The notes below the pieces were generated by a model. It did not search any database. It was not told where the DNA came from and saw only the letters and a program-made list of their open reading frames with translations. Below are positions 3,769-57,813 of a DNA stretch of 64,000 bases, one piece after another. Within the stretch, counting starts at the first letter, position 1, and every line of letters begins with the position of its first letter. The position numbers and the translations under genes were made by a program. The DNA is from Candidatus Woesearchaeota archaeon (GTDB lineage Archaea; Nanobdellota; Nanobdellia; Woesearchaeales; DSVV01), in contig JACPTB010000002.1 in the NCBI GenBank assembly GCA_016192995.1, positions 98,283 through 162,282 of the forward strand. Reading direction: 5' to 3'.

Positions 3769-4228
3769 AAAACAAGAAGAAATTCTATTAGATACAGGTC
3801 CTTTACTTCAGATATTAGTTGGGCTATATGATCCTGAAAAATTAAGTAAAATAGAAATAAACCAGGATCAATTTGGACTCCTTATTACTTATATCCAACA
3901 ATTCAGGAAAAAACTGGTAACACCACATATTTTAGCAGAAGTTTCAAACTTAGTAAAAATCAGATTAAAAAAAAACGCTAAAGAACTAATAAAATGTTCA
4001 ATAATATTTTTGAATAAAACAGATGAAGAGATCATTCAAAAAAACGCTATACTACAGGAAAAAAATCTAAAGTTACTAATGGATTTCGGTATAACTGATA
4101 CAGCAATAGCATTAAGTTCAAATAAAAATAGGATAATTTTAACAAGTGATGGACCATTTTTTGCATATTGTTATAGTAATAAAATCCCAGCCATACATAC
4201 TGAAGCCATATTTAATATGGCAATTTGA
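3755..4228 (+). CDS. PIN-domain protein (VapC-like putative nuclease)
   Basis: 157 aa; N-terminal ILLDTGPLLQIL and C-terminal IILTSDGPFF place acidic residues where PIN catalytic Asp residues sit. Confidence 0.45.
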   Translation: MDKLKKQEEILLDTGPLLQILVGLYDPEKLSKIEINQDQFGLLITYIQQFRKKLVTPHILAEVSNLVKIRLKKNAKELIKCSIIFLNKTDEEIIQKNAILQEKNLKLLMDFGITDTAIALSSNKNRIILTSDGPFFAYCYSNKIPAIHTEAIFNMAI

Positions 4229-4271
4229 AATAATGTTCGCAATTTAGTAACATTTATTAAAACCCCTCTTT

Positions 4272-6449
4272 TTGAAATTCTCTATGCAGGATAAAGAGTT
4301 TGATTATCTCCAAGTGTTAAGGGCAGTAGATGAGATTCCGTTTGGTGTAGGAAAGAAACTATTAATCGAATTCTTGCAGGGAAAAGCAAAGACTGAATCC
4401 ATTATAAGAAACAAATTAAACAAAAAACAAACCTTCGGCTCATTAGCCTACGAGGATAATGAGCTTAGTTTAATGATTGATAAACTGCTTCTTAATAACT
4501 TACTGGAGATACAATCGCTTCAAGCAAATAAATTCTGGAAAATAATAGGATTAACTGAAAAAGGAAGAAAAGAACTGCAAAACCCTACTCTGCACAAAAA
4601 GAAGCTTTCAAATAATTTCAAAAACATAAAAACAGTGATTACAGAAAAAGAACGTGAACTATTTCTTGCGCTGGGAGATTTCATAAGTAAATATAACGAC
4701 GAACAAAAAAAAGCAATAATTTCTAACAAAGAACATATCCTCTGCCTTGCTGGAGCAGGAACAGGAAAAACATCAGTTTTAACAAAAAGAATTGAATTTC
4801 TAGTACAATATAAATCTGTTCAACCGCAGAAAATTCTCGCAATTACTTTTACGAGAAAAACGCGTGATGAAATGGTAAAAAGACTGAGCCAAAATCCGCA
4901 ATGCAACAATGTGCAGATAGAAACATTTAATTCATTTTGTGAACGAATGTTAAGAACACATAATAATTATTTGTATGACAAACCAATGGAAGTTATTATG
5001 TACAGGGATAAAATAAAAATTATCATGCAAGCGCTTAATAATTTGCATTTAGATATAAACAAAGCAATTGCAATTTATTTTACTAGCAACCAACAACGTG
5101 GAAAATCAAGCGAGCAATTGGCAAATATTTTCATGCATGACTGTTTTTTTGTGAGAGATTATTTTAAATCAAAAAACAAGCAGTTAAAACATGAAGAATT
5201 TGAAACAGATGAAGCAAAGCATGAACAAGCTGCAGCCATGATGTATGGCGTCTGCAATTATATTGACACTTACATGCAAAAATACGGATTGCGGGATTTT
5301 ACTGACCAGTTGCTTGACACATTAAAACTATTCACCCTTCACAAAGAATTAATCCCCAAATTTGATCACATCATGATTGATGAATATCAAGATATCAACA
5401 CAACACAAATTGAACTGATCAATGACCTTAATCCACCTAATCTGTTCTCTGTTGGCGATCCGCGACAATCTATTTATGGATGGCGAGGATCTGATATCAA
5501 ATTTATTCTTAATTTTGAAGATGCTTATCCAAATGCAGAGATAATTACTTTAACTAAAAACTATCGTTCATCACCAGCAATTGTTGATCTTATCAATAAA
5601 GCTATTGCGCCGATGGGATTAGCAGATCTTGAATCTGCGCAAGCTGGAAATACTAGAAATCCTGAAATAAAAATGTTAAAATGCCAGGATGAAAACGCTG
5701 AATTTTCGTTTGTAATCAATAACATAAAAAATACCACTCTTCCAAGAAATGAAATTTTTGTGTTAGCAAGAACAAACAGGCAATTAAAAGATCTCTCTGA
5801 TCTATTAAAATTACAAGATATTGCTCATGTTGTCCGCACTGATGAAACAAGAAAAAGAGTGTATACTGAACCTCATCAAATAACACTTGCCACAATCCAC
5901 GCAATAAAAGGACTTGAAGCGGAGATGGTATTGATTATAGGTTGCACAGCAGCAAATTTTCCCTGCAGAGCATCAGACCATCCAGTCATTGACATGATCA
6001 AAGTTGATGAATATGATAAAGAGGAAGAAGAAAGAAGATTATTTTATGTTGCCATGAGCAGAGCAAAACAAAACTTGTTTTTAACCTACACCGGCAAAAA
6101 CCCAACCTATTATATTACTCCTGAAATGCTCAAGATAGTACAACTTGATAAAACAATAGTTTCCAACCTAAAATTAGATAGTGAAATGCCTTCAATTTCA
6201 ATAAATACTGCTAAGAACAGGATAAGAAAAACAAATGCCAGTCAAATAGAAGAACGATTAAAACAATGGCGTTGGGAAATTGCGCAACAACACAGCATTC
6301 CTGCATACATGGTAGTCAGCAATAAAACCATTATCGAACTTGCCCAAAAAATGCCTTTAACAACGCAAGAGATGTATGATATTTATGGTCTTGGTCCAAA
6401 CAAAATTATGAGATATGGAGAAGAATTGTTAAAGGTATTGCATAGATAA
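4272..6449 (+). CDS. UvrD/PcrA-type SF1 DNA helicase with N-terminal RQC-like wing and C-terminal HRDC domain
   Basis: Walker A AGAGTGKT, motif II IMIDEYQD, motif IV NYRS, motif V TIHAIKGLE; C-terminal WRWEIAQQHSIPAYMVVSNKTIIELA...GLGPNKIMRYG is HRDC; N-terminal IPFGVGKKLLIEFLQGKAK resembles the RecQ RQC wing. Confidence 0.8.
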   Translation: MKFSMQDKEFDYLQVLRAVDEIPFGVGKKLLIEFLQGKAKTESIIRNKLNKKQTFGSLAYEDNELSLMIDKLLLNNLLEIQSLQANKFWKIIGLTEKGRKELQNPTLHKKKLSNNFKNIKTVITEKERELFLALGDFISKYNDEQKKAIISNKEHILCLAGAGTGKTSVLTKRIEFLVQYKSVQPQKILAITFTRKTRDEMVKRLSQNPQCNNVQIETFNSFCERMLRTHNNYLYDKPMEVIMYRDKIKIIMQALNNLHLDINKAIAIYFTSNQQRGKSSEQLANIFMHDCFFVRDYFKSKNKQLKHEEFETDEAKHEQAAAMMYGVCNYIDTYMQKYGLRDFTDQLLDTLKLFTLHKELIPKFDHIMIDEYQDINTTQIELINDLNPPNLFSVGDPRQSIYGWRGSDIKFILNFEDAYPNAEIITLTKNYRSSPAIVDLINKAIAPMGLADLESAQAGNTRNPEIKMLKCQDENAEFSFVINNIKNTTLPRNEIFVLARTNRQLKDLSDLLKLQDIAHVVRTDETRKRVYTEPHQITLATIHAIKGLEAEMVLIIGCTAANFPCRASDHPVIDMIKVDEYDKEEEERRLFYVAMSRAKQNLFLTYTGKNPTYYITPEMLKIVQLDKTIVSNLKLDSEMPSISINTAKNRIRKTNASQIEERLKQWRWEIAQQHSIPAYMVVSNKTIIELAQKMPLTTQEMYDIYGLGPNKIMRYGEELLKVLHR

Positions 6450-6455
6450 TATTTA

Positions 6456-6632
6456 GAGAACTTTGCAAAATTATGGTTACTGCCAATTTCGTGAGCATTT
6501 TCGAAATATTTATCGGGCAATTTTCGAGGTTCCTTGCCGACAGGCAAGTCTTATAATCCCGATCTTTAGTCGAGATTATATTTATAGAGAGAAAATTGCT
6601 TTGTTTAACAAAGATCTCAATGCGAACTGGCT
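6456..6632 (+). mobile_element. MITE-like repeat, family 1, copy A (degenerate right end, nested insertion in core loop)
   Basis: left end GAGAACTTTGCAAAATTATGGTTACTGCC shared with copies at 43079 and 48447; internal hairpin core 6517-6599 interrupted by ~53-nt insert. Confidence 0.7.
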
Positions 6633-10138: not shown

Positions 10139-11269
10139 ATGAAATCGCAACAAACTATTGTGCTTCTTGATGCGCAGTTGAAAAATGCATTTAAAGCAGT
10201 AAAACAGGATATTTCTCGTTTAGATAAAAAGGTAGACTCAACAAGATATGATGAAGTGAAAACTGAAATAAATAAAGTTCATACGATCGTAGATAATGAA
10301 TTAAAAAAATTAAAAGAACAATTAAAAAACTTGAAAAAAGAATTAAAGGAAAATTTCAAAGAGATCACTAACAAAGTAAAAAATGAGAGCGCTACAAAAA
10401 ATGATATTGCATCATTAGAAAATGAATTAGAAGAATATGCCATTAAAGTGAAGAAGAATTTTATTAAAGCTGCAGATAAATTCAAAGAAGTGGAGAGCAA
10501 TACAATCGAACTCGATGAAGTAAAGGCTGCATTTTTAACCAAAGAAACAGTGGAAAAACAATTAGAAAGCCTTAAAGAAAGCTTAATGCAGGATAGAGAA
10601 AAAGAAATAAATAATGTAAAAAAACAGGTTGATAAAGCCACCAGTGATTTTCACGATAAAGTGAATGGTATGCAGAAAGAACTTGATGACGTGCATGATA
10701 AAGTAACAACACTTTCAAAAAGAGCAGAAGTTCTTGTTCATAAAGAAGAGTTAGCAAAGGCAAGTGAAAACTTCATTGAAATTGACGAATTTAATAAAAT
10801 TCTTGATAATATAGAAACATTGAAGAAAGAATTCTATGAAAAACCTGAAGAAACAACAACAAAAGAAAAAGATGAATTGTTCAAACGACAAATGGAAAAA
10901 ACAGCTAATGATATTCATGATAAAGTTAATAATCTAAGAAAAGAACTTGATAGTGTGCATGAAAAAGTAACAAAAGTTCAAGAAAAGATGGAAAAAACAA
11001 TAGATCAAGAAGAGCTGTTAAAAATAAGTAGGGGCTTTGTAAATATTGAAGAACATAACAAAGTGCATGAAAAGATTGATGCAGTGAAAGAAATGCTGAA
11101 TACAGTTCAATTCTCAGATACTGAAGTAAAAAAACTCCGTTCAAATGTTGATAAAATAATTCTTGCACTTGTTCCAAAGAAAGAGCATGATAAAAGCATG
11201 GAGAATATTCATAAAAAACTTCAAAGCTTAAAAGAAGATATTGACGAAATAGATAAAAAAGTGAAATAA
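10139..11269 (+). CDS. coiled-coil protein with two ~100-aa internal repeats
   Basis: 376 aa K/E-rich heptad-like sequence; repeated block HDKVNxxxKELDxVHxKVT...FxEIDEFNKI / FVNIEEHNKVHEKI. Confidence 0.5.
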   Translation: MKSQQTIVLLDAQLKNAFKAVKQDISRLDKKVDSTRYDEVKTEINKVHTIVDNELKKLKEQLKNLKKELKENFKEITNKVKNESATKNDIASLENELEEYAIKVKKNFIKAADKFKEVESNTIELDEVKAAFLTKETVEKQLESLKESLMQDREKEINNVKKQVDKATSDFHDKVNGMQKELDDVHDKVTTLSKRAEVLVHKEELAKASENFIEIDEFNKILDNIETLKKEFYEKPEETTTKEKDELFKRQMEKTANDIHDKVNNLRKELDSVHEKVTKVQEKMEKTIDQEELLKISRGFVNIEEHNKVHEKIDAVKEMLNTVQFSDTEVKKLRSNVDKIILALVPKKEHDKSMENIHKKLQSLKEDIDEIDKKVK

Positions 11270-11864: not shown

Positions 11865-12021
11865 GTATGTAATAAGTCTTGTATGGTTTTAGCGCCAGTT
11901 CAGCTTTTGAAGTGTGTTTCAATTGGATTTTTCTCTCTGGAACTCCGAAAAATCCCCAAAATGTATTTAAGAAGAGCTTCACAAAAGTAGGCGCTAAAAC
12001 CCCAGACGACTTATTACATAC
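11865..12021 (-). mobile_element. MITE-like element, family 2, copy B (157 bp) with TIR and 7-bp TSD
   Basis: TIR GTATGTAATAAGTC / GACTTATTACATAC; flanked by CACAAAA on both sides (11857-11863 and 12022-12028); core hairpin 11925-11955. Confidence 0.75.
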
Positions 12022-31862: not shown

Positions 31863-33587
31863 ATGGAAACAGATTTTTATCGAGAGATAATTGAAGCAGT
31901 AAAAAATAAAAAATTAGAACCAGAAAACTTAAACAAAATAAAGCGTGAACTTTCAAAAAAATATAAATTAGGATATATTCCAACAAATATTGAAATTTTA
32001 TTAAGAGCTAAAAAAACTGAGCGCGAGAAATTAAAAGCATTGCAATTAAAACCAACACGTTCTATTTCTGGGGTTGCAAACGTAGCAATTATGTCTGCGC
32101 CATATGCCTGCCCTCCGCAAGCGCAATGCACCTTCTGCCCTGGAGGTCCAAACTCGCAGTTTGGGACAGTTCCTAAATCATATACAGGCCATGAGCCAAG
32201 CACGATGAGAGGAATCAGAAATGACTATGATCCTTATTTACAAGTGTTTAATCGTATTCAGCAATATGTTTTGCTGGGGCATAGCTTTGATAAAATTGAA
32301 TTAATTATTATGGGTGGCACATTTACCAGTTACAGCAAAGTGTATCAGGAAAAGTTTATCAAATACGCTTTAAAAGCAATGAATGATTTTTCTGATCTTT
32401 TTTTTATTGAAAAAAGATTCAATATCGAAAAATTCAAGGAATTTTTCGAGCTGCCTGGAGATATTGAAGACCATGAGCGTGCAGCAAAAATTAAAGAAAA
32501 ATTGCTTAAAATAAAAGGAGACAGCGCGTTAGATAAAGAACAGCAGCGTAATGAAAAAGCAAATATAAAATGTGTTGGATTAACTTTGGAATCACGATCC
32601 GATTATTTGAAAAAAGATTATGCAAATTACATTCTTGAGCTTGGCTGCACAAGAGTTGAAATAGGAATACAGTCAGTGTATGAAAAACCTTTGATCATGG
32701 TAAAAAGGGGTAATACAACGCAAGATAATATAGAAGCAATCCGAGATCTGAAAGATCTCGGATTTAAAATAAACCTTCATTATATGTTAGGATTGCCTGG
32801 TATTAAAGACAAAAAGGAAGATCTTGAAGGTATGAAACAGTTATTTTCTAATCCTGATTACAAACCTGATATGTTAAAGATATATCCATGTATGGTGTTC
32901 AAAGGAACACCATTGTATGAAGAGTATGTTAAAGGAAACTATAAACCATACAGTACTGAAGAAGCTGCTAAAATGATTGCAGCATTCAAGCCTTTTGTCG
33001 GCCGTTATTGCAGAATAATGAGAGTTAACCGTGACATTCCTTCTAAAATGAACGAAGCAGGAATTGATAAAACCAATTTACGTCAGTATGTAGACCAGTT
33101 TAATCATCACTGCAAATGTATAAGATGCAGAGAAGTTGGCCACGTTTATAAAAAAACAGGAAAAAAACCTGAAAAGATAGCATGTATTATTGAAGAATAT
33201 GAAGCAAGCAAAGGAAAAGAATTCTTTATTTCATATGAAGATAAAGAACAAGATATTCTGCTCGGATTTATCAGAATGCGATTCCCGAGCAGAATATTAA
33301 GAAAGGAGATTACTAAAACAAGTGCTTTAATCAGAGAGCTTCATGTGTATGGATCTGCAGTAATGATTGGAAAAAAAGAATCGTTATCCATAACAAGTAT
33401 TGCACAGCATAAAGGTTTAGGAAAAAAACTATTGAAAAATGCGGAAACTATTGCAAAGAAACAGGGAAAAGATAAAATAGTAATAATCGCAGCATTAGGA
33501 ACAAGAGAATACTATCGAAAATTAGGTTATAGAAAAGAAGGACCATATATGATAAAGAAACTTAGAGTTTCTTTATCAGTCGAGTAG
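31863..33587 (+). CDS. elp3: Elp3-family radical SAM / GNAT acetyltransferase
   Basis: CPPQAQCTFCPGGPNSQFGTVPKSYTGHEPSTMRGIRNDYDPY Elp3 signature; C-terminal GNAT QHKGLGKKLL; stop codon TAG spans junction with MITE. Confidence 0.85.
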   Translation: METDFYREIIEAVKNKKLEPENLNKIKRELSKKYKLGYIPTNIEILLRAKKTEREKLKALQLKPTRSISGVANVAIMSAPYACPPQAQCTFCPGGPNSQFGTVPKSYTGHEPSTMRGIRNDYDPYLQVFNRIQQYVLLGHSFDKIELIIMGGTFTSYSKVYQEKFIKYALKAMNDFSDLFFIEKRFNIEKFKEFFELPGDIEDHERAAKIKEKLLKIKGDSALDKEQQRNEKANIKCVGLTLESRSDYLKKDYANYILELGCTRVEIGIQSVYEKPLIMVKRGNTTQDNIEAIRDLKDLGFKINLHYMLGLPGIKDKKEDLEGMKQLFSNPDYKPDMLKIYPCMVFKGTPLYEEYVKGNYKPYSTEEAAKMIAAFKPFVGRYCRIMRVNRDIPSKMNEAGIDKTNLRQYVDQFNHHCKCIRCREVGHVYKKTGKKPEKIACIIEEYEASKGKEFFISYEDKEQDILLGFIRMRFPSRILRKEITKTSALIRELHVYGSAVMIGKKESLSITSIAQHKGLGKKLLKNAETIAKKQGKDKIVIIAALGTREYYRKLGYRKEGPYMIKKLRVSLSVE

Positions 33588-33843
33588 TACGTAATAAGTC
33601 TGGGGTTTTAGCACCTACTTTTGTGAAGCTGTTCTTATATTTGCTGTGAGGATTTTTCGGGGTTCCTTGCCGATAGGCAAGTCTTATAATCCCAGACGCA
33701 AGCCAAATTATGACTCCTTGATTTATAAGAAAAATCCAATTGAAACACACTTCAAAAGCTGAACTGGCGCTACCTGAATCCGAAGGATCTCAGGGATTAA
33801 AAATAGTAATTTTTAATAAAACCATAAAAGACTTATTACGTAC
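33587..33843 (+). mobile_element. MITE-like element, family 2, copy C (257 bp) with TIR and 8-bp TSD
   Basis: TIR GTACGTAATAAGTCT / AGACTTATTACGTAC; direct repeat GTCGAGTA at 33579-33586 and 33844-33851; core hairpin 33650-33737 carrying a nested insert. Confidence 0.85.
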
Positions 33844-42301: not shown

Positions 42302-43117
42302 ATGTACGAAGAACTATTCCGCGAAATTGGCTTAAGTCCAAACGAAGCTAGAATTTACGAAGCATTGCTCCAAACAGGCGATGCTTCAGTGCAGACTATT
42401 GCAATTAAGGCAAACATTCATCGGAGAAATGCATATGATGCTTTAAGCAGACTTTTAGAAAAAGGATTAATCTCCCAAACCATTCTCAGCAATGAGCAGC
42501 ACTTCAAAGCAACCAATCCAGAACGATTGCTTTCCATGATAAAAGAAAAAGAAGATAAAATAACAAAAGCGCTTCCGGAAATCAAGCAAAAGTTTTTTCA
42601 AAAACAAGAAAAAGAACAAGCATATATCTACAAAGGCATCCAAGGATTCAGAAATTACATGCAGGATATTCTTGATGTTGGCAAAGATGTTTATTGCATT
42701 GGCGCTAAAGGTGGATGGTTTGAACCACGATTAAAAACATTCAGATTTAGATTCTATGAAGAACTCAAAAAAAAGAACGTCAAATGCTACCATTTATTTG
42801 ATGCAGAAATGATGCAACAGCAGAACGAAGCTGAAGGACCTGTACCAGTACATCTCCATGAAGCACGATTTTTACCTGAAAAATATTCCACACACTCAGC
42901 AATTGATATTTTAGATGATCGTGTCATTACTTTCACTGGATTAAATATTAACAAGCTTGATGATGATGTCACTATATTTGTGTTAATAAGCAAAAAACTA
43001 GCTGATGATTACAAAAAATGGTTTTGGCTGATGTGGAATGCAAGTTCCCCAATTGATAAAGGAGAAGAAAAAGCTAAAGAGAACTTTGCAAAATTATGGT
43101 TACTGCCTATTTTGTGA
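42302..43117 (+). CDS. trmB: TrmB-family transcription regulator (paralog 2); last 13 codons MITE-derived
   Basis: REIGLSPNEARIYEALLQTGDASVQTIAIKANIHRRNAYDALSRLLEKGL; C-terminus ENFAKLWLLPIL encoded by MITE copy D. Confidence 0.65.
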   Translation: MYEELFREIGLSPNEARIYEALLQTGDASVQTIAIKANIHRRNAYDALSRLLEKGLISQTILSNEQHFKATNPERLLSMIKEKEDKITKALPEIKQKFFQKQEKEQAYIYKGIQGFRNYMQDILDVGKDVYCIGAKGGWFEPRLKTFRFRFYEELKKKNVKCYHLFDAEMMQQQNEAEGPVPVHLHEARFLPEKYSTHSAIDILDDRVITFTGLNINKLDDDVTIFVLISKKLADDYKKWFWLMWNASSPIDKGEEKAKENFAKLWLLPIL

Positions 43118-43222
43118 GCATTTTCGAAATACTTATCGGGCAATTTTCGGAGTTCCAGAGAGAAAATTGCTTTGTTTAACAAAGATCTCAATGCGAACTG
43201 GCAGTAACCCGAGCTTTGCATT
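43079..43222 (+). mobile_element. MITE-like repeat, family 1, copy D (right end truncated)
   Basis: GAGAACTTTGCAAAATTATGGTTACTGCC ... GGCAGTAACCCGAGCTTTGCA; core hairpin 43140-43170. Confidence 0.75.
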
Positions 43223-43282
43223 CTTATAAATATTTAATTATATTTTATATAAGGGTATTAAGAATTTCGTAGAAAATTCTTA

Positions 43283-43336
43283 CCACTAACAAGATAATAA
43301 TTTAAAAGATAATACCACTGGCAAGATAATAATTTT
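43283..43336 (+). promoter_or_regulatory. tandem direct repeats CCACT(A/G)(A/G)CAAGATAATAATTT upstream of nrdJ
   Basis: two copies spaced 31 bp, ~150 bp upstream of the nrdJ start. Confidence 0.3.
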
Positions 43337-43482
43337 GAGTGATATTGAAAATATATTTTTAAGAAACATAATATTTATATACCACGCCATGCCGTAAAAA
43401 TGAAGATATCTTGTATAATTAAACAGAAGCAACCACAAGATATTGTGTACTATCCAACGACGAACAAAAGAGGCTGAACGTC

Positions 43483-46400
43483 ATGAATGAACAAAAAATC
43501 CTGCGAATTAAAAAAAGAACTGGTGAATATGTTGGATTTGATCTGAAGAAAATTTCTAATGCTATTTTCAAAGCTGCCCAGGCAGTGGGAGGTTCTGATT
43601 ATAAAATCTCAGAACGATTAGCAGAACAAGTTTTTGACATGCTCAATGAACAGGACTTGAAAGAAGACATACCTTCAGTGGAAGATGTTCAGGATTGCGT
43701 TGAAAAAGTGCTTATTGAAACAGGACATGCAAAAACAGCAAAAGCTTTTATCTTATATAGACAAAAACGTGCAGAAGCACGATTAAAAGCTGATGCATTA
43801 GTTGGTATAAAAGGTTTGGAAGAAAAGCAAGATCCTTTTGGCGTGAATGAAGAATTATTCGGCAGTTCATTAACCAGCCATAATATCAAAGTTACGGTAA
43901 CTGAACCAATTGCAAAAATGTTTACGTATAACAGCAAATTATCCAAGTTAGTGGATAAAAATAAAATTAATGCCTATAGAAAATTATTTTATATGCTCAA
44001 GGATATGCAGAAGGAGGGTTCGTTGCCATTGCATCCTGCAAATGATTATTTAGCAGGCAATGAACTTGCCATGGATATTTACAGGAAAAAATATTATGTC
44101 CACGATCTTGATGATAACCTTATTGAGCAGCGTCCGGAAGATGTATTTGTAAGGCTTGGTTCTTATCTTGCATCTATTGAAGAAGATGAAGACAATCAAG
44201 TGTATTTTGCCCAGGAATTCTATAAAATGCTTTATGAAGGATATTTTGTGCCTGGCGGCAGAGTAATTGCTGGAGCTGGAGATTTATATAGATTAAAAAC
44301 ATTAGCAAATTGCTTTGTTTCAGTGATGGAAGATGATAACATTGAATCTATTTACAAAGCTGCTTTCGAATGTGCGCGAACATATTCATATGGGGGAGGA
44401 ATTGGCGTTGATATTTCTACCCTGCGTCCAAGAGAAGCTGTGGTACATAATGCAGCAAATTTCTCAACAGGCAGCGTTTCATTCATGGAAATCTACTCAT
44501 TAACAACAGGGTTAATTGGTCAAGCTGGAAGGCGAGGCGCATTAATGCTAACTATTGATGTTAAGCATCCTGATATTCTTAATTTTATTAGAGTCAAACA
44601 AGAATCAAATTGGGTGACAAAACAGATTAGGGAGCAATGCAGCTGGTCAGGAAAATTCAACGCTGAACAGCTGGATGCGATTGAAAAACAAGTTCGTGAA
44701 AACACCCAGGTAAGGTTTGCAAATATTAGCATGAAAGTTACTGATGAATTCATGACTGCTGTTGAAGAGCAAAATAAGTATGGAAAGGATAAAATAGTAG
44801 TGTATAAAAAATTTAGCAAATTGATTATTAATAGAGTTAACCAAAGCAAAGAAATGAATTTTGCCTTTGGCATTCCTTCAAAATATTTAGAGAATTATGA
44901 GTTATATAAAGTATTTGAAACCATTGAAGAAGCAAATGAGTTTATACATAAAGAAACAAACAAACAGATCTCCAAGCAATTGCTTGAAAATGTGCAGAAC
45001 AGGGACATTTATGGAGATGTAATTGTACCAGTAGAATCACAAAATTATGATTTAGCAGTGAGATATTCAGGTGATTATTTATTATATTTTAGTTCTGAAC
45101 CTGCAGGAGAAACAAGAAGATTAGTAAAAGCGCGGGATATTTGGGATGAATTTGTTAAAGGTAATTATCAAACAGCTGAGCCAGGATTAATATTCTGGTC
45201 AAGAATGACAAAGTATTCACCTTCTAATTATATAGGGAGACCAATTGCAAGTACAAACCCCTGTATTGCAGGAAACTCACAGGTATCAACAAGTAAAGGA
45301 TTGCAGCAAATAAAAGAGCTTGTTGGTAAAACGCCTCAGATTCTAACTGACAACCGAGTGCCTATACAAGTGAGAGATACTAACGGAAGAATTATGTTGC
45401 TCGAACAAAAACAACAAGGAGTAAGTTTTGACACTATAGAAGCAGCATGGTCATCGGGAATTAAAGAAACCTATAAACTTACCACAAAAAAGGGCTATGA
45501 AATCACTGCAACAGGTGATCATAAGATTATGACTACTGAAGGTTTTAAGCAGTTACATGAACTTACACCTAAAGATAAAATTTTAATCCAAAAAGGAGAA
45601 GGCATGGGAAACAATGATAAGCTATTATCTATTGAAAGAGATGAAATTATCAAAGGAGATAATAATCATATCTATCATTACAAATTCCCCACAACATGGT
45701 CAAAAGAACTTGGGCAATTGCTTGGTTGGACAGTAGGAGATGGATTTATCACTCCTGAACCAGATAATAGACTTGGGTTAGTATTTAGTAAAGAAGATGA
45801 AGACGTGATGAGCCAGTTAAAGAAGTTTATTGAGGAGATATATGGAAAAGAAACAAAACCAAGCATCAGAGAGTCTACAACACAATTAAGATACCATAGT
45901 AAATATTTTTGTGATTTTCTACGTAGATTAGGCATCAAAAGTGTAAAAGCTGAACTTAAGCAAGTTCCGCATAGGATATTTACTGCGCCAAAAGAAGCAG
46001 TAGTAGGATTTTTACAGGGATTGTTTACTGCTGATGGAACTATGGCAGTTGGCGAAAAAGGGAATTATATTCGATTAACTTCTAAGTCAGAAAAGCTTCT
46101 GAAAGAAATACAAATAATACTTATTAACTTAGGGATGTTATCTACAATCTATGAACGCCATCGAACTCCTCAGAAAAAATTTAATTACTATAATGCAGCT
46201 GGAGAATATAAAGAGTACATAACAGATGGGAAATTATGGGAGTTAAGTATAACTAAAGGAAGCTTGCAGCGATTTGTTGAAGAAATTGGGTTTATAGGAA
46301 GTAAACACCAAGAAAGAATAAAAGTATTTCTCACAAAGAAACAATACCAAGAACACTTTTACGATACTATAAAAAGCATAGAACCACAGGGAAAACAAGA

Positions 46401-47730
46401 AGTATTTGATCTAACAGAACCACGAACACATTCTTTTATAGCTAATGGCATTGTTATTTCAAATTGTGGTGAAGTGCCATTAGAAGACGGCGGCGCTTGT
46501 AATCTTGGATCAATTAATCTTTCTCGGTTAGTAATTGATGGTTTTACTGATACTGCAAGAATTAACTGGAACGAACTTGAACGAGTAACAAAGTTGGCTA
46601 CACGATTTTTAGATAATGTTGTTGGCTGGAATATTTCATTGAATGCTCTTGATAAACAACGGAGTGCTGCTGCAGAAACACGAAGACTTGGTTTGGGTGT
46701 TATGGGAATTGCAGATATGTTATTTCAGCTTGGTTTAGAATATGATAGTGAAGAGGGTATAGCAGTTATTGAGAAAGTTTGTCAGGTTATTGCTAATGCA
46801 GGTTATCGTGAATCCGCAGAATTAGCTGAAGAAAAGGGAGCTTCACCAGTATTTGATTATAACAAATACAGCCGCAACCCATTTTTTAAAGAAGCTCTTG
46901 ATGACAATACTAAAGAATTAGTCAAGAAAAAAGGATTGCGGAATATTGCAATACTTTCTATTGCGCCAACAGGAACTATTTCAAATATTGTATTAGGGTA
47001 TAAAGGAGAGCAAAAGAATTATATTGGTGTTAGCGGCGGTGTTGAACCGGTATTTGCAATATTTTACACGAGAAGAAGTGAAAATTTCGGCAACAAACGA
47101 TTTAACATCTTCCATTCAACAGTAAGCGCTTATTTGGATAAAAAAGGGCTCCAGGAAAAAGCGCAGTATGCAACAAGTGAAGACGAACTCCGCCAACTGT
47201 TGCCTGGATGCTTTTTTAGAACTGCCCATTATATTGAGCCTGAAAAAAGAGTTTTAATTCAGGGAGACTGCCAAAAATATACTGACCATAGTATTTCATC
47301 AACCGTCAATTTACCTGAAAGCATAAGCCCTGAAACCATTTCAGAGATTTACATTAAAGCATGGAAATTTGGCTTAAAAGGGATCACTATTTACCGTGAT
47401 GGAAGCAGGTACCCTATTTTAAGCATTCAGCAACAGCAAAGCGCATTTCAAGATTTCAAGAAAAAACAATTCAAATATGTCTCTGATGGAAAAGAAATCA
47501 TAGTAAGAGGCGACCAAGTTATAAAGCTGCCTCAGGGAAAGCTTTCAACGCCGTATCATGCGCAGAGAGAAAACATTCAAGGGATAGTGTTAACCGAGAT
47601 CACTGATCAACCAGCGATAACTGAAGAAGACAGTTCTAATAAAAATGAAGATCATAAAGATGATAACAAAGCTAAAGTCTGCACTATTAGTTTTGAAGAT
47701 GGAAAGCTTGTTAAATCATGCTCAGAGTAA
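43483..47730 (+). CDS. nrdJ: class II (adenosylcobalamin-dependent) ribonucleotide reductase with ATP-cone and intein
   Basis: N-terminal ATP-cone ILRIKKRTGEYVGFDLKKISNAIFKA; catalytic TNP-C...GEVPLEDGGACNLGSINL; C-terminal GLKGITIYRDGSR and terminal Cys pair. Confidence 0.85.
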   Translation: MNEQKILRIKKRTGEYVGFDLKKISNAIFKAAQAVGGSDYKISERLAEQVFDMLNEQDLKEDIPSVEDVQDCVEKVLIETGHAKTAKAFILYRQKRAEARLKADALVGIKGLEEKQDPFGVNEELFGSSLTSHNIKVTVTEPIAKMFTYNSKLSKLVDKNKINAYRKLFYMLKDMQKEGSLPLHPANDYLAGNELAMDIYRKKYYVHDLDDNLIEQRPEDVFVRLGSYLASIEEDEDNQVYFAQEFYKMLYEGYFVPGGRVIAGAGDLYRLKTLANCFVSVMEDDNIESIYKAAFECARTYSYGGGIGVDISTLRPREAVVHNAANFSTGSVSFMEIYSLTTGLIGQAGRRGALMLTIDVKHPDILNFIRVKQESNWVTKQIREQCSWSGKFNAEQLDAIEKQVRENTQVRFANISMKVTDEFMTAVEEQNKYGKDKIVVYKKFSKLIINRVNQSKEMNFAFGIPSKYLENYELYKVFETIEEANEFIHKETNKQISKQLLENVQNRDIYGDVIVPVESQNYDLAVRYSGDYLLYFSSEPAGETRRLVKARDIWDEFVKGNYQTAEPGLIFWSRMTKYSPSNYIGRPIASTNPCIAGNSQVSTSKGLQQIKELVGKTPQILTDNRVPIQVRDTNGRIMLLEQKQQGVSFDTIEAAWSSGIKETYKLTTKKGYEITATGDHKIMTTEGFKQLHELTPKDKILIQKGEGMGNNDKLLSIERDEIIKGDNNHIYHYKFPTTWSKELGQLLGWTVGDGFITPEPDNRLGLVFSKEDEDVMSQLKKFIEEIYGKETKPSIRESTTQLRYHSKYFCDFLRRLGIKSVKAELKQVPHRIFTAPKEAVVGFLQGLFTADGTMAVGEKGNYIRLTSKSEKLLKEIQIILINLGMLSTIYERHRTPQKKFNYYNAAGEYKEYITDGKLWELSITKGSLQRFVEEIGFIGSKHQERIKVFLTKKQYQEHFYDTIKSIEPQGKQEVFDLTEPRTHSFIANGIVISNCGEVPLEDGGACNLGSINLSRLVIDGFTDTARINWNELERVTKLATRFLDNVVGWNISLNALDKQRSAAAETRRLGLGVMGIADMLFQLGLEYDSEEGIAVIEKVCQVIANAGYRESAELAEEKGASPVFDYNKYSRNPFFKEALDDNTKELVKKKGLRNIAILSIAPTGTISNIVLGYKGEQKNYIGVSGGVEPVFAIFYTRRSENFGNKRFNIFHSTVSAYLDKKGLQEKAQYATSEDELRQLLPGCFFRTAHYIEPEKRVLIQGDCQKYTDHSISSTVNLPESISPETISEIYIKAWKFGLKGITIYRDGSRYPILSIQQQQSAFQDFKKKQFKYVSDGKEIIVRGDQVIKLPQGKLSTPYHAQRENIQGIVLTEITDQPAITEEDSSNKNEDHKDDNKAKVCTISFEDGKLVKSCSE
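45262..46464 (+). other. intein (401 aa) with LAGLIDADG homing-endonuclease domain, inserted before catalytic Cys of nrdJ
   Basis: N-terminal splice CIAGNS, block B TGDHKIMT, LAGLIDADG motifs LLGWTVGDGF and VVGFLQGLFTADG, C-terminal HSFIANGIVISN followed by extein Cys. Confidence 0.8.
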
Positions 47731-47828: not shown

Positions 47829-48446
47829 ATGGCTAGATATGGAAAAATCCAGGTATATACCGGAGATGGAAAAGGAAAAACAACAGCATCATTAGGATTA
47901 GCTCTGAGAACTGTTGGCCAAGGCGGTAAAGTATTTATTGTGCAATTTATGAAAGGCGGCGCATACACCGGTGAATTTATCAGCATCAAAAATTTCCTCC
48001 CAAAGATTGATATTATACAATTTGGAAGGGGCTGTGTTAAAGAAAAAAAACAAATGAAATTATTAGGGATTAATGAAGGAGCAAAATATTTTGATTTTGT
48101 GAGAGAAGATATTGAATGCGGACCTTGCAGATATTGTTTTCTTAATGACCAGGAACAAGTAAAATTCGTGAAAAGCGCTTTTGCCTTAGCGCAGAAGTTA
48201 ACTGCTTCAGAAGATTATGATTTAATTATTCTTGATGAAGTTAATGTAGCATTGAAATTAGGATTTTTGAGCATTGAAGAAGTGCTTGAATTAATGGAAA
48301 AAAAACACCCGCAATTGGAGTTAATAATGACCGGCAGAGATGCCCATGAAAAAGTAATGGAGAAAGCAGATTTAGTTACTGAAATGAAATTAGTCAAGCA
48401 TTATTTCGACAAAGGCACTTCTGCAAGAAGAGGGATTGAGTATTAA
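47829..48446 (+). CDS. cobO: ATP:corrinoid adenosyltransferase (CobO/CobA/BtuR family)
   Basis: VYTGDGKGKTTASLGLALRTVGQGGKVFIVQFMKG P-loop signature. Confidence 0.8.
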   Translation: MARYGKIQVYTGDGKGKTTASLGLALRTVGQGGKVFIVQFMKGGAYTGEFISIKNFLPKIDIIQFGRGCVKEKKQMKLLGINEGAKYFDFVREDIECGPCRYCFLNDQEQVKFVKSAFALAQKLTASEDYDLIILDEVNVALKLGFLSIEEVLELMEKKHPQLELIMTGRDAHEKVMEKADLVTEMKLVKHYFDKGTSARRGIEY

Positions 48447-48608
48447 GAGAACTTTGCAAAATCATGGTTACTGCCTATTTTGTGAGCATTTTCGAAATAC
48501 TTATCGAGCAATTTTCGGAGTTCCAGAGAGAAAATTGCTTTGTTAAAAAGATATCTCAATGCGAACCGGCAGTAACCCGAGCTTTGCGAGTATTTTGCAA
48601 AGTTCTCC
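48447..48608 (+). mobile_element. MITE-like repeat, family 1, copy E (162 bp, intact palindrome)
   Basis: 16-bp perfect TIR GAGAACTTTGCAAAAT / ATTTTGCAAAGTTCTC, inner IR GGTTACTGCC / GGCAGTAACC; core hairpin 48508-48538. Confidence 0.8.
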
Positions 48609-48631
48609 TAAGTTTATGTAGGTTTAAGAAT

Positions 48632-50330: not shown

Positions 50331-52361
50331 ATGCCCCTTGAAAAAGTCATTAAACGGAATGGTGAAACTGTAGTTTTTGATCCAAAAAAGATCACAGATG
50401 CATTGTACAAAGCAGCGCAAGCTATTGGAGGAACTGATGAAGAGCTCTCTAAAGCATTAACAAAAAAGATTGTAGCAAAGATAGAAGAATTATTTCCTGA
50501 CAAAATCCCCCATGTTGAAGATGTTCAGGATGTTGTTGAGCGTGTTTTAATAGAAGACAATCATGTAAAAACAGCAAAAGCATATATTTTGTATAGGGAA
50601 CGCCAAAAAAATATCCGGGAGGTAAAACAGTCATTAGTAGGAGGATATGTTGATAAGCGCTTTACTATTAATGCATTAAAAATTCTCAAAGAACGATTAT
50701 TAATGAAAAAAGAAGATGGCGCTGTTGAAACGCCTGAAGATATGTTTAGAAGAGTAGCAAAAGAAATAGCAAAAGCAGATAAACAATATGATAATGAGCC
50801 AAACCTGAAAGAAACTGAAGATAAGTTTTTCGAGTGTTTAAACAAGCTTGATTTTTTGCCAAACTCGCCCTGCTTAATGAACGCAGGAACCAAAAATCAG
50901 CAGTTAATTTCATGCTATGTCCTACCAATTGAAGACAGCACTGAAAGTATTTATACAACATTAAAAAATGCTGCAATGGTGCATCGTACAGGTTCAGGAA
51001 CAGGCTTTTCTTTTTCCAATTTAAGACCAAAAGAAGATACGATCGATGATTCTCGTGGATTTTCAGCAGGGCCAATTCCATTTATGCATGTCTATGATAA
51101 ATCAACAGAAATAATCAAGAAAACTGGTTTAAGGCGTGGCGCAAACATGGCAGTGTTGCGTGTTGATCACCCCAATATCCTCGATTTTATTACCGCAAAA
51201 GAAAATCCCCATCACTTGAGAAACTTCAACATCTCTGTTGGCATTACAAAAGAATTTATGGATGCATTAGACAACAGAAAACGATATCCATTAATTAATC
51301 CGCGAACAAAGCAGGAAGTTCGTTTATTGCCTGCTAAAGAGGTCTTTGATTTAATTGCAACAATGTCGTGGAAAAATGGTGAGCCAGGAGTTATTTTCCT
51401 TGATACTATTAATGAGAAGAACCCTGTTCCTGAACTTGGTGAAATAAAAACAACCTCTGCCTGCGGAGAAGTGCCTTTGCTTGAATATGAAGCATGCCCG
51501 CTTGGCTCAATAAACTTATCTAATATGGTGCAAGGAGGCAGGGTCAATTTAGCTGCATTGCGGGACACTGCGTGGATTGCAGTGCATTTTCTTGATAATG
51601 TTATTGATGTAAATAAATACACCTTAAAAGACAGTGAAAAAATAACTAATGATAATAGAAAAATAGGAGTTGGAGTTATGGGTTTTGCAGATATGCTGTA
51701 TCAGTTAGGGGTTCCTTATAATAGTGAAGAAGCAATAAAAGTAGCAGAAAGAATCATGAAATTTATTCGTGATGAAGCAAGATTAGCTTCAGAAGCTCTA
51801 GCAAAAAAAAGAGGAGTATTTGCAAATTATGAAAAAAGCATATATGCAAAAAAAGGAATAAAGCAAAGAAATGCGACAACAACTGCTATTGCGCCAACAG
51901 GAACAATCTCATTAATTGCTGATTGTTCTTCAGGCATTGAACCGAATTTCGCTTTAAGTTACATGAAAAAAATCACCGGTGGGGATGAGTTATTATATGT
52001 TAATAAGCATTTAAAAAGCGAATTATTGAAAAGAGAGATTTATTCTGAAGATTTAATGAAAGAAATTGCATCAAAAGGATCACTCCAATCATTTTTGGAT
52101 TTAGCATCAGAAATCAGAAAAGTGTTTGTTATTAGCCATGAAATACCTGCAGAATATCATGTATTAATCCAAGCAGCATTTCAAAAATATTGCGATAATG
52201 CAGTTTCAAAGAGCGTTAATTTAGAGTACACTTCAAGCAAAGAAGATGTCGTTAAAACCTTCAAGCTTGCTTACAAACTAGGGTGTAAAGGAATAACCAT
52301 TTATCGAGATAGAAGCAGAGAAGATCAGATTTTAACACTATTAGGGGGAGAAGCAATATGA
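50331..52361 (+). CDS. nrdJ: class II ribonucleotide reductase (short paralog, no intein)
   Basis: ATP-cone VIKRNGETVVFDPKKITDALYKA; TSACGEVPLLEYEACPLGSINL; GCKGITIYRDRSR. Confidence 0.8.
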   Translation: MPLEKVIKRNGETVVFDPKKITDALYKAAQAIGGTDEELSKALTKKIVAKIEELFPDKIPHVEDVQDVVERVLIEDNHVKTAKAYILYRERQKNIREVKQSLVGGYVDKRFTINALKILKERLLMKKEDGAVETPEDMFRRVAKEIAKADKQYDNEPNLKETEDKFFECLNKLDFLPNSPCLMNAGTKNQQLISCYVLPIEDSTESIYTTLKNAAMVHRTGSGTGFSFSNLRPKEDTIDDSRGFSAGPIPFMHVYDKSTEIIKKTGLRRGANMAVLRVDHPNILDFITAKENPHHLRNFNISVGITKEFMDALDNRKRYPLINPRTKQEVRLLPAKEVFDLIATMSWKNGEPGVIFLDTINEKNPVPELGEIKTTSACGEVPLLEYEACPLGSINLSNMVQGGRVNLAALRDTAWIAVHFLDNVIDVNKYTLKDSEKITNDNRKIGVGVMGFADMLYQLGVPYNSEEAIKVAERIMKFIRDEARLASEALAKKRGVFANYEKSIYAKKGIKQRNATTTAIAPTGTISLIADCSSGIEPNFALSYMKKITGGDELLYVNKHLKSELLKREIYSEDLMKEIASKGSLQSFLDLASEIRKVFVISHEIPAEYHVLIQAAFQKYCDNAVSKSVNLEYTSSKEDVVKTFKLAYKLGCKGITIYRDRSREDQILTLLGGEAI

Positions 52362-57600: not shown

Positions 57601-57608
57601 ATAATAGA

Positions 57609-57766
57609 CTCAGGTGAAAATGTAGTTTTTGGCATCTTTTGGTGAAGCTCTTCTTAATTTTACCTTGAGGATTTTTCGGAGTGCCAGAGAGAAAAATCCA
57701 ATCGAAATACTCTTCAAGAGCTGAACTGATGCCAAAACCGAGGCTATGCCGAGATTTTCACCTGAG
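57609..57766 (+). mobile_element. MITE-like element, family 2 variant, copy F (158 bp)
   Basis: 13-bp TIR CTCAGGTGAAAAT / ATTTTCACCTGAG; core hairpin 57669-57699 GGATTTTTCGGAGTGCCAGAGAGAAAAATCC. Confidence 0.75.
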
Positions 57767-57813
57767 CCTAAACAATAAAAACTTTTATTAACCAGTAAAC
57801 GAGGTAATATTAT

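Follow-up and report, generated by a model that had tools for sequence, protein, structure and literature searches.

What is the long palindrome that begins at the first base after the stop codon of cobO on this Woesearchaeal contig, and what does its position at a gene end signify? The stretch of DNA analyzed (here, the window) is 64,000 nucleotides long and archaeal in its gene content, which includes CDP-archaeol synthase, Elp3, a PAN-like AAA ATPase, and an intein-bearing NrdJ (33% G+C); its TrmB-family protein is closest to Woesearchaeota proteins. An earlier note, made from the letters of this DNA, had assigned the palindrome, as copy E, to a repeat family (family 1) with two further members, copies A and D. 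Copy E is the only complete family 1 copy within the window and is built as follows.

48447-48608, plus strand: copy E of family 1, 162 nt (covariance model score of 109 bits, E value of 1e-21)
48443-48611, plus strand: copy E with four further complementary bases per side
48447-48462, plus strand: left terminal inverted repeat, which is the 5' strand of the outer helix P1, GAGAACTTTGCAAAAT
48466-48475, plus strand: 5' strand of helix P2, GGTTACTGCC, whose partner is at 48568-48577
48482-48490, plus strand: 5' strand GU-GA-GCAUU, comprising two Watson-Crick pairs, a tandem G.A, and helix P3, whose partner is at 48558-48566
48508-48538, plus strand: apical hairpin P5, made of GCAATTTTC, a 13-nt loop (GGAGTTCCAGAGA), and GAAAATTGC
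48558-48566, plus strand: AAUGC-GA-AC, the 3' strand of P3, the tandem G.A, and the two Watson-Crick pairs
48568-48577, plus strand: 3' strand of helix P2, GGCAGTAACC
48578-48590, plus strand: side hairpin C-GA-GC-UUU-GC-GA-G, with a second tandem G.A motif that recurs in most relatives
48592-48607, plus strand: right terminal inverted repeat, the 3' strand of P1, ATTTTGCAAAGTTCTC

The outer arms (GAGAACTTTGCAAAAT/ATTTTGCAAAGTTCTC) are complementary at 16 of 16 positions and the inner arms (GGTTACTGCC/GGCAGTAACC) at 10 of 10, exactly as first described, and with TTAA/CTAA added the outer arms reach 20 nt at 95% (48443-48462 / 48592-48611). Copy E folds into a single long rod-like hairpin of about 58 pairs, with an energy of -53.2 kcal/mol as RNA (z = -5.6) and of -32.1 kcal/mol as DNA (z = -6.5); none of 200 shuffled versions folds equally stably. 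The earlier description as a near-perfect palindrome of 162 bp is right about the hairpin and overstated as to its symmetry, since two internal loops of 17 to 20 nt and the 13-nt apical loop are not palindromic. The other two family 1 copies are both incomplete.

6456-6632, plus strand: copy A, which breaks off partway through the 3' strand of P2 and has a 52-nt apical insertion at 6534-6585 that the earlier note does not mention
43079-43222, plus strand: copy D, which ends inside the small side hairpin

Neither copy has a right arm. Pairwise identity is 95.2% between A and D, 95.1% between D and E, and 89.6% between A and E, which agrees with the earlier estimate of about 90%; the earlier note had called the right ends of A and D degenerate or truncated. 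The positions at which D and E differ are unpaired throughout.

The abutment on gene ends that the earlier note had pointed out is likewise found: the helicase stop codon ends at 6449, 6 nt before copy A, and the cobO stop codon ends at 48446, 0 nt before copy E. At copy D, the TrmB-family ORF (42302-43117; PF01978) runs 39 nt into the element, which supplies 12 codons (ENFAKLWLLPIL) and the stop codon. The claim that the element furnishes the end of this TrmB paralog holds, with 12 codons plus a stop in place of the 13 codons first counted. TrmB orthologues are 245 to 265 aa long and have variable ends after WFWLMWxASKPxKK; none of them ends in the ENFAKLWLLPIL tail. The 12-residue tail is derived from the element, and the insertion of copy D displaced the native end of the protein.

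The apical insertion of copy A is 95% identical to positions 33654-33693 of the window, a match that led to three further elements.

11865-12021, minus strand: superfamily member whose arms are GTATGTAATAAGTC and whose 8-bp duplication is TTTTGTGG, located between the divergent GT4 and CarS genes
33587-33843, plus strand: superfamily member of the long form; its arms are GTACGTAATAAGTCT, and its duplication, GTCGAGTA, is perfect
57607-57768, plus strand: superfamily copy with GACTCAGGTGAAAAT arms, 6 nt past the stop codon of a PhoU/AbrB-like gene

The outer arms of these three are quite different from those of family 1; the layout is the same and the apical hairpin is near identical. With a covariance model of the core (R1, which extends from P2 to P2 only) and with filters disabled, a census of the window counts exactly six copies. 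This corresponds to about 94/Mb in 64 kb and agrees with a survey in which one Woesearchaeal genome, at 105 MITEs/Mb, is among the most MITE-dense archaea, the elements themselves being undescribed there (PMC11602168). Family 1, first taken for a family of its own with three copies, is therefore one branch of a larger superfamily with a common covarying core. The insertion (TTGCCGAYAGGCAAGTCTTATAATCCC...) occupies an identical position within the apical loops of copy A (6534-6585) and the 33.6-kb copy (33667-33735), the outer arms of which are unrelated, and it opens with a 6-bp hairpin with a GAYA loop. Its presence in both copies implies an ancestral long form or an exchange between subfamilies.

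Beyond the six elements of the window, 23 further elements were found in Woesearchaeota/Nanoarchaeota assemblies. Scanning 185,579 species genomes with a 23-nt stretch of the core yielded 20 loci in 10 assemblies, with a maximum of 8 per assembly; because these loci were fetched using the 23-nt core as the pattern, that stretch is conserved in them by construction. Two more divergent copies were identified within the fetched loci by the covariance model. A scan with the family 1 arm plus P2 gave one family 1-like element (L028), which lies behind an unrelated 712-aa ORF in another metagenome and is the nearest relative of copy E. The assemblies with core loci are labeled Woesearchaeota, Nanoarchaeota, or Nanoarchaeia. 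Two core-bearing assemblies stand out by a different label, in that CAYVTQ01 (L001, L004, and L015) and CAYNCK01 (L018) are named “uncultured Methanosarcinales archaeon.” The aIF2-gamma encoded on L015 is 75 to 77% identical to “Candidatus Woesearchaeota” proteins; we therefore rejected the idea of an element common to Methanosarcinales hosts, and the labels of these assemblies are probably wrong. As far as sampled, the superfamily is confined to Woesearchaeota and “Nanoarchaeota” (DPANN archaea). The core is absent from the viral contigs scanned. There, the loop motif alone gives two matches of 19 nt, attributable to chance, and the arm 16-mer gives 120 single matches, approximately the number expected by a rough chance estimate; plasmid and phage collections returned no blastn match.

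Elements of the superfamily are 150 to 260 bp long, within the size limit of about 500 bp for a MITE. The ORFs that cross them are only tails of host genes or unconserved frames, and no transposase gene is among them. Inverted arms of 13 to 20 nt are present in 22 of 26 elements. Arm sequences in the superfamily include GGCGGCATTGAAAAGT, GAGAACTTTGCAAAAT, and GTAAGTAATATGTCT, and one and the same core is framed by either of two unrelated arm types, resembling GGCGGCATTGAAAAG or GTAAGTAATATGTCT. The second type starts with GTAA, which may recall IS66. An element on L013 (4440-4640) is enclosed by a second, outer inverted repeat (CAAGTTAAGTG ... CACTTAACTTG) and may be nested in another palindromic element.

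Evidence for mobility comes from the sites that the elements occupy. With the element boundaries fixed by the outer arms, the 8-bp flanks match at 7 or more of 8 positions in 16 of the 24 complete elements and perfectly in 10, while in a control that combines the left and right flanks of different elements, 2.5% reach 7/8 and 0.2% reach 8/8. Loci resemble one another up to the boundaries of the element and no further, their neighboring genes are unrelated, and elements are found at nonorthologous positions in many genomes. In addition, a locus syntenic with that of copy D (L026) encodes the closest relative of the TrmB-family gene (86% identical) with the same upstream genes and with NrdJ downstream, and the 8.8 kb fetched from it, the TrmB-NrdJ spacer included, is free of any element. 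Given relatives of the same architecture with 8-bp duplications, the unrelated loci, and this empty TrmB-NrdJ site, the term “MITE-like” in the earlier note was well chosen.

Copy E itself shows no clear target-site duplication (at best 5/8 within 2 nt of either side of its ends), and L028 shows no convincing one (4/8). The duplication of copy E may have decayed or may never have existed. The lack of a recognizable duplication at copy E, together with the truncation of A and D, could be taken to mean that the family 1 copies are local segmental duplicates or chance palindromes and not mobile at all. We consider this extremely improbable: the flanks of A, D, and E are mutually unrelated, another metagenome has an element with the same arms and P2 after an unrelated gene, clear duplications flank relatives that have this core, and the exact 16-mer of the outer arm occurs four times in the window, versus 0.3 times expected. 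Membership in the superfamily and the presence of L028 at an unrelated locus argue that family 1 is mobile as well. The repeat nature of copy E is also visible in public assemblies. An identical CobO is encoded on six public contigs, and all six stop 47 nt into copy E, at the point where its sequence turns identical to copy D, as is usual for assemblers at repeats.

The core of the elements is conserved more strongly than their terminal repeats. When a structure consisting of P2, the two Watson-Crick pairs, P3, and P5 is specified by hand for 23 elements, 97.4% of the cells are paired, and changes on both sides are seen in 15 of the 25 pairs, a count to be read with the reservation that the covariation shuffle control ignores the kinship of the sequences. 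If the 3' partners are slid by 1 to 3 columns, pairing falls to 19 to 49%; RNAalifold gives a picture similar to the hand-specified structure. Across the superfamily, 9 of the 10 pairs of P2 have changes on both sides, and the stem variants of P5 (GCAAU, GCAUU, GGAUU, and GAAUU) are compensated. Identity is 68 to 83% in the stems, compared with 40 to 43% in the large internal loops, which are about 55% identical even among seven copies of one assembly.

Between the covarying pairs lies a tandem G.A/A.G (5'-GC-GA-AGCU / AGCU-GA-GC-3'). Its GA positions, which are outside the search pattern, are 98% identical among the 23 elements, and it is kept in three divergent copies that have a different apical domain. 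The side hairpin (C-GA-GC-loop-GC-GA-G) is found in most members, and both tandem G.A motifs have the Y-GA-R context on the same strand, a context typical of sheared G.A pairs. A kink-turn of the L7Ae-binding kind was considered and rejected: it needs a 3-nt bulge immediately 5' of the tandem G.A/A.G, whereas in these elements two covarying Watson-Crick pairs (GC in 23; CG in 15 and UA in 8) lie between the bulge and the G.A pairs. The motif is a symmetric tandem G.A internal loop. On this frame, the apical part takes several forms.

Most copies: 13-nt loop, GGAGUUCCAGAGA
Copy A and the 33.6-kb copy, from different arm families: long form made of two hairpins, with a GNNA loop
L007b: GC-rich three-way junction
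L020b and L028: GGAAUUCC-type loops

In the L007 element (4212-4371, plus strand), the P2 / G.A / P3 frame is kept and a G+C-rich three-way junction of 90 nt takes the place of the apical hairpin, on a contig that otherwise has 34% G+C; this element has no Rfam match.

Two arm types on one core and a core that is conserved more strongly than the ends are the reverse of what is predicted for a plain deletion-derived MITE. Likewise, a near-invariant G.A between covarying pairs looks like a functional single-stranded fold and is unexplained by “junk between two ends.” It is conceivable that the mobile element serves to carry a structured RNA with a function of its own, such as a scaffold for protein binding, which would be selected for its activity after transcription. 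The core would then comprise P2, the tandem G.A, P3, the apical hairpin, and the side hairpin, and the terminal repeats would merely spread it. Such an RNA would account for the covariation of P2, P3, and P5 and the near-invariant tandem G.A in its Y-GA-R context, with both G.A motifs on one strand, as well as for apical domains that are exchangeable on one frame, one core with unrelated terminal repeats, and the confinement of the D/E differences to unpaired positions. However, the two strands fold equally well (mean difference between plus and minus of -0.25 kcal/mol; Wilcoxon p = 0.71), orientation is mixed, with 4 of the 11 copies between tandem genes being antisense, and the shuffle control for covariation is blind to sequence relatedness. 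Cis requirements for transposition alone could explain conservation among selfish copies. A known RNA family was rejected: Rfam 15 gives no match across the whole window at the gathering threshold, and permissive Rfam searches with four elements give at best 13 to 20 bits, against cutoffs of 36 to 140. The window also encodes no tRNA. A guide role for the variable loops, of the kind known from bridge or omega RNAs, was rejected as well, because these loops are unrelated to the flanking DNA (longest loop-flank match of 7.1 nt, versus 7.2 nt in the control). On balance, we regard it as unlikely, yet worth keeping in view, that the core, with its two tandem G.A motifs, near-invariant 13-nt apical loop, and interchangeable peripheral domains, is an undescribed structured RNA or folded single-stranded DNA module that has spread on at least two sets of transposon ends and is selected for the action of its fold and not solely for the ends bound by a transposase.

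The position of the elements relative to genes raises a separate question. Copies are scattered among helicase, Elp3, TrmB, CobO, and PhoU-like genes, with gaps between element and gene that are typically 0 to 60 nt on either side. Insertion may remake the stop codon itself. The TAG stop of Elp3 (33585-33587) consists of the TA of the duplication (33579-33587 region) and the first G of the arm. On L015, the element at 899-1077 lies inside the stop codon of the aIF2-gamma gene, with the duplication ATATTTTA; here, the left copy of the duplication and the first arm G form TAG, the right copy and the next base form the original TAA, and the protein ends in GYGEIF, exactly as in the nearest orthologue. 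Many downstream genes begin 44 to 49 nt past the element, a distance that leaves room for a BRE/TATA promoter.

A role as a terminator or mRNA 3' stabilizer had been suggested in the earlier note. Under such a reading, the host would have adopted the elements as 3'-end hairpins that stop transcription or protect mRNA from 3' exonucleases, hence their position after stop codons. The hairpin is indeed very stable, and 5 of the 6 window copies, and 13 of 28 overall, lie in sense orientation within about 30 nt of a gene 3' end. Nevertheless, sense-only placement behind genes is not seen: between tandem genes, 7 elements are sense and 4 antisense, a difference that is not significant, and 5 or 6 elements lie upstream of a co-oriented gene, in divergent spacers. 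No run of five or more T residues follows the stem, a terminator scan with a bacterial-type model is empty, and the truncated copies A and D persist though unable to form the outer helix. The downstream starts at 44 to 49 nt fit insertion into a free slot before a promoter. Since orientation is inconsistent, a terminator role is unsupported, the more so as both strands fold equally, and we think adoption as 3'-end hairpins improbable. A simpler explanation for the position at gene ends is that the intergenic spacers are very short.

Among known systems, several share part of this architecture. Integron attC sites are also imperfect palindromes that stand right after ORFs, and their structure is conserved more than their sequence. 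They have RYYYAAC/GTTRRRY core sites, are not known to make a target duplication, and form cassette arrays beside an integrase; the present elements have (A)GAGAAC ... GTTCTC(C) ends and target duplications and are dispersed among housekeeping genes, and attC was rejected. REPINs, which are mobilized by RAYT transposases, consist of two REP units and are not known to make a target duplication. The elements resemble the REPIN/RAYT system in being long intergenic hairpin repeats with compensatory evolution of both arms (PMC3116915), but the clear 8-bp duplications led us to reject this assignment. The likeness to prokaryotic MITEs (Correia/nemis of Neisseria; MITEHarch3, under IS6 in ISfinder) extends to a length of about 160 bp, the lack of a transposase gene, inverted ends, a duplication of constant length, numerous copies spread over intergenic sites, folding into a long stem-loop, and occasional fusion to the end of an ORF, all of them classic MITE features (PMC3184786). 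Unlike in those MITEs, no parent insertion sequence was found, the ends are less conserved than the interior, a single core is combined with two unrelated end types, and the hosts are Woesearchaeota. The bcr1 repeat of the Bacillus cereus group, as summarized in PMC3184786, is about 155 bp long, mobile, and transcribed and makes 5-bp duplications. As far as that summary goes, bcr1 is likewise a small mobile repeat in which structure rather than sequence is kept by compensatory changes, and it differs from the Woesearchaeal element in its bacterial host, the 5-bp duplication, a two-stem cruciform-like fold, and the lack of common sequence. We suggest bcr1 as the nearest functional analogue.

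The element ends recall IS6/IS26, for which the consensus of the ends is GGTTCTGTTGCAAA (PMC6807381, PMC7986276). Shared traits are the 8-bp duplication, a GG start of the ends in the main subfamily, and TTGCAAA within the family 1 arms (PMC6807381, PMC7986276). In contrast, the ends match the consensus at only 8 or 9 of 14 positions, the conserved G at position 7 is missing, family 1 starts with GA, and the GTAAGTAATATGTCT arm type is unrelated. A tblastn search with Tnp26 (an approximate query sequence) against the window and the loci, which cover a small part of each genome, gave nothing below an E value of 0.89. Searches of the window, the 28 loci (about 170 kb), and long repeats revealed neither an autonomous element nor a transposase with matching ends, and long IS-like repeats are absent among the loci. 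An IS6 parent was set aside: the ends resemble the IS6 consensus loosely, and the part of each genome that was covered gave no transposase match.

Our analysis indicates that the elements are, very probably, a MITE family moved by a transposase that is encoded elsewhere and makes 8-bp staggered cuts. The class of that transposase is one that we infer. Within a known class of elements, the MITEs, the superfamily represents a new family; no published description of it or of its fold was found in the literature. We propose the following mechanism. (i) The transposase, encoded elsewhere, would move the element by way of 8-bp staggered cuts in the target; copy E would be an intact substrate, and copies A and D, having lost the right arm, would be immobile relics. 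(ii) As a single strand, every member folds into a rod of about 160 nt, in which P1 and P2 are followed by a U/A-rich bulge, the two Watson-Crick pairs, the tandem G.A/A.G, and P3, and then by a large hypervariable internal loop and a 9-bp apical stem with the loop GGAGUUCCAGAGA. (iii) Copies would build up in the only permissive sites, which are the few bases that separate a stop codon from the promoter that follows it and the space between convergent stops, so that insertions abut or slightly overlap gene ends and at times rewrite the last codons. The conserved fold would, in this mechanism, be a cis requirement for mobilization, in the form of single-stranded DNA or otherwise, rather than a service to the host, with only fold-keeping copies leaving descendants. 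This is the most economical reading of the fold, because conservation among selfish copies reflects what they need in order to leave descendants.

DPANN genomes are about 1 Mb in size and have little spare DNA, yet the window has a density of about one element in every 10 kb. Their insertion alters the ends of genes, as in the 12-residue tail of the TrmB-family protein and the remade stop codons of Elp3 and aIF2-gamma, and the elements break metagenome assemblies, which matters for the annotation and binning of these genomes. The conservation of the fold beyond that of the ends has consequences on either reading: an RNA function, if true, would make it a new RNA class, whereas a cis requirement, if true, would point to an unusual substrate for an archaeal transposase.

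Some other features of the window were observed along the way. Two nrdJ-like genes follow copy D. The first (43483-47730) encodes a B12-dependent ribonucleotide reductase of 1415 aa containing an intein with a LAGLIDADG domain, and 2.6 kb downstream a second NrdJ-like paralogue (50331-52361) has 676 aa and no intein; the 72 to 79% DNA repeats D5 and D9 are explained by this paralogy. Another repeat, 103 nt long, direct, and 71% identical (10619-10721 / 10883-10985), lies inside a 376-aa ORF (10139-11269) with weak coiled-coil-type Pfam matches only, the product of which is probably a repetitive structural protein. Upstream of the first nrdJ gene (43280-43470), the box ACCACT(A/G)(A/G)CAAGATAATAA is repeated, and two palindromes, AAGATATCTTG and CACAAGATATTGTG, are present. 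Boxes and palindromes look like operators of the NrdR-box type and are kept almost unchanged at the orthologous locus L026 (4830-5000), while the rest of the spacer has diverged.
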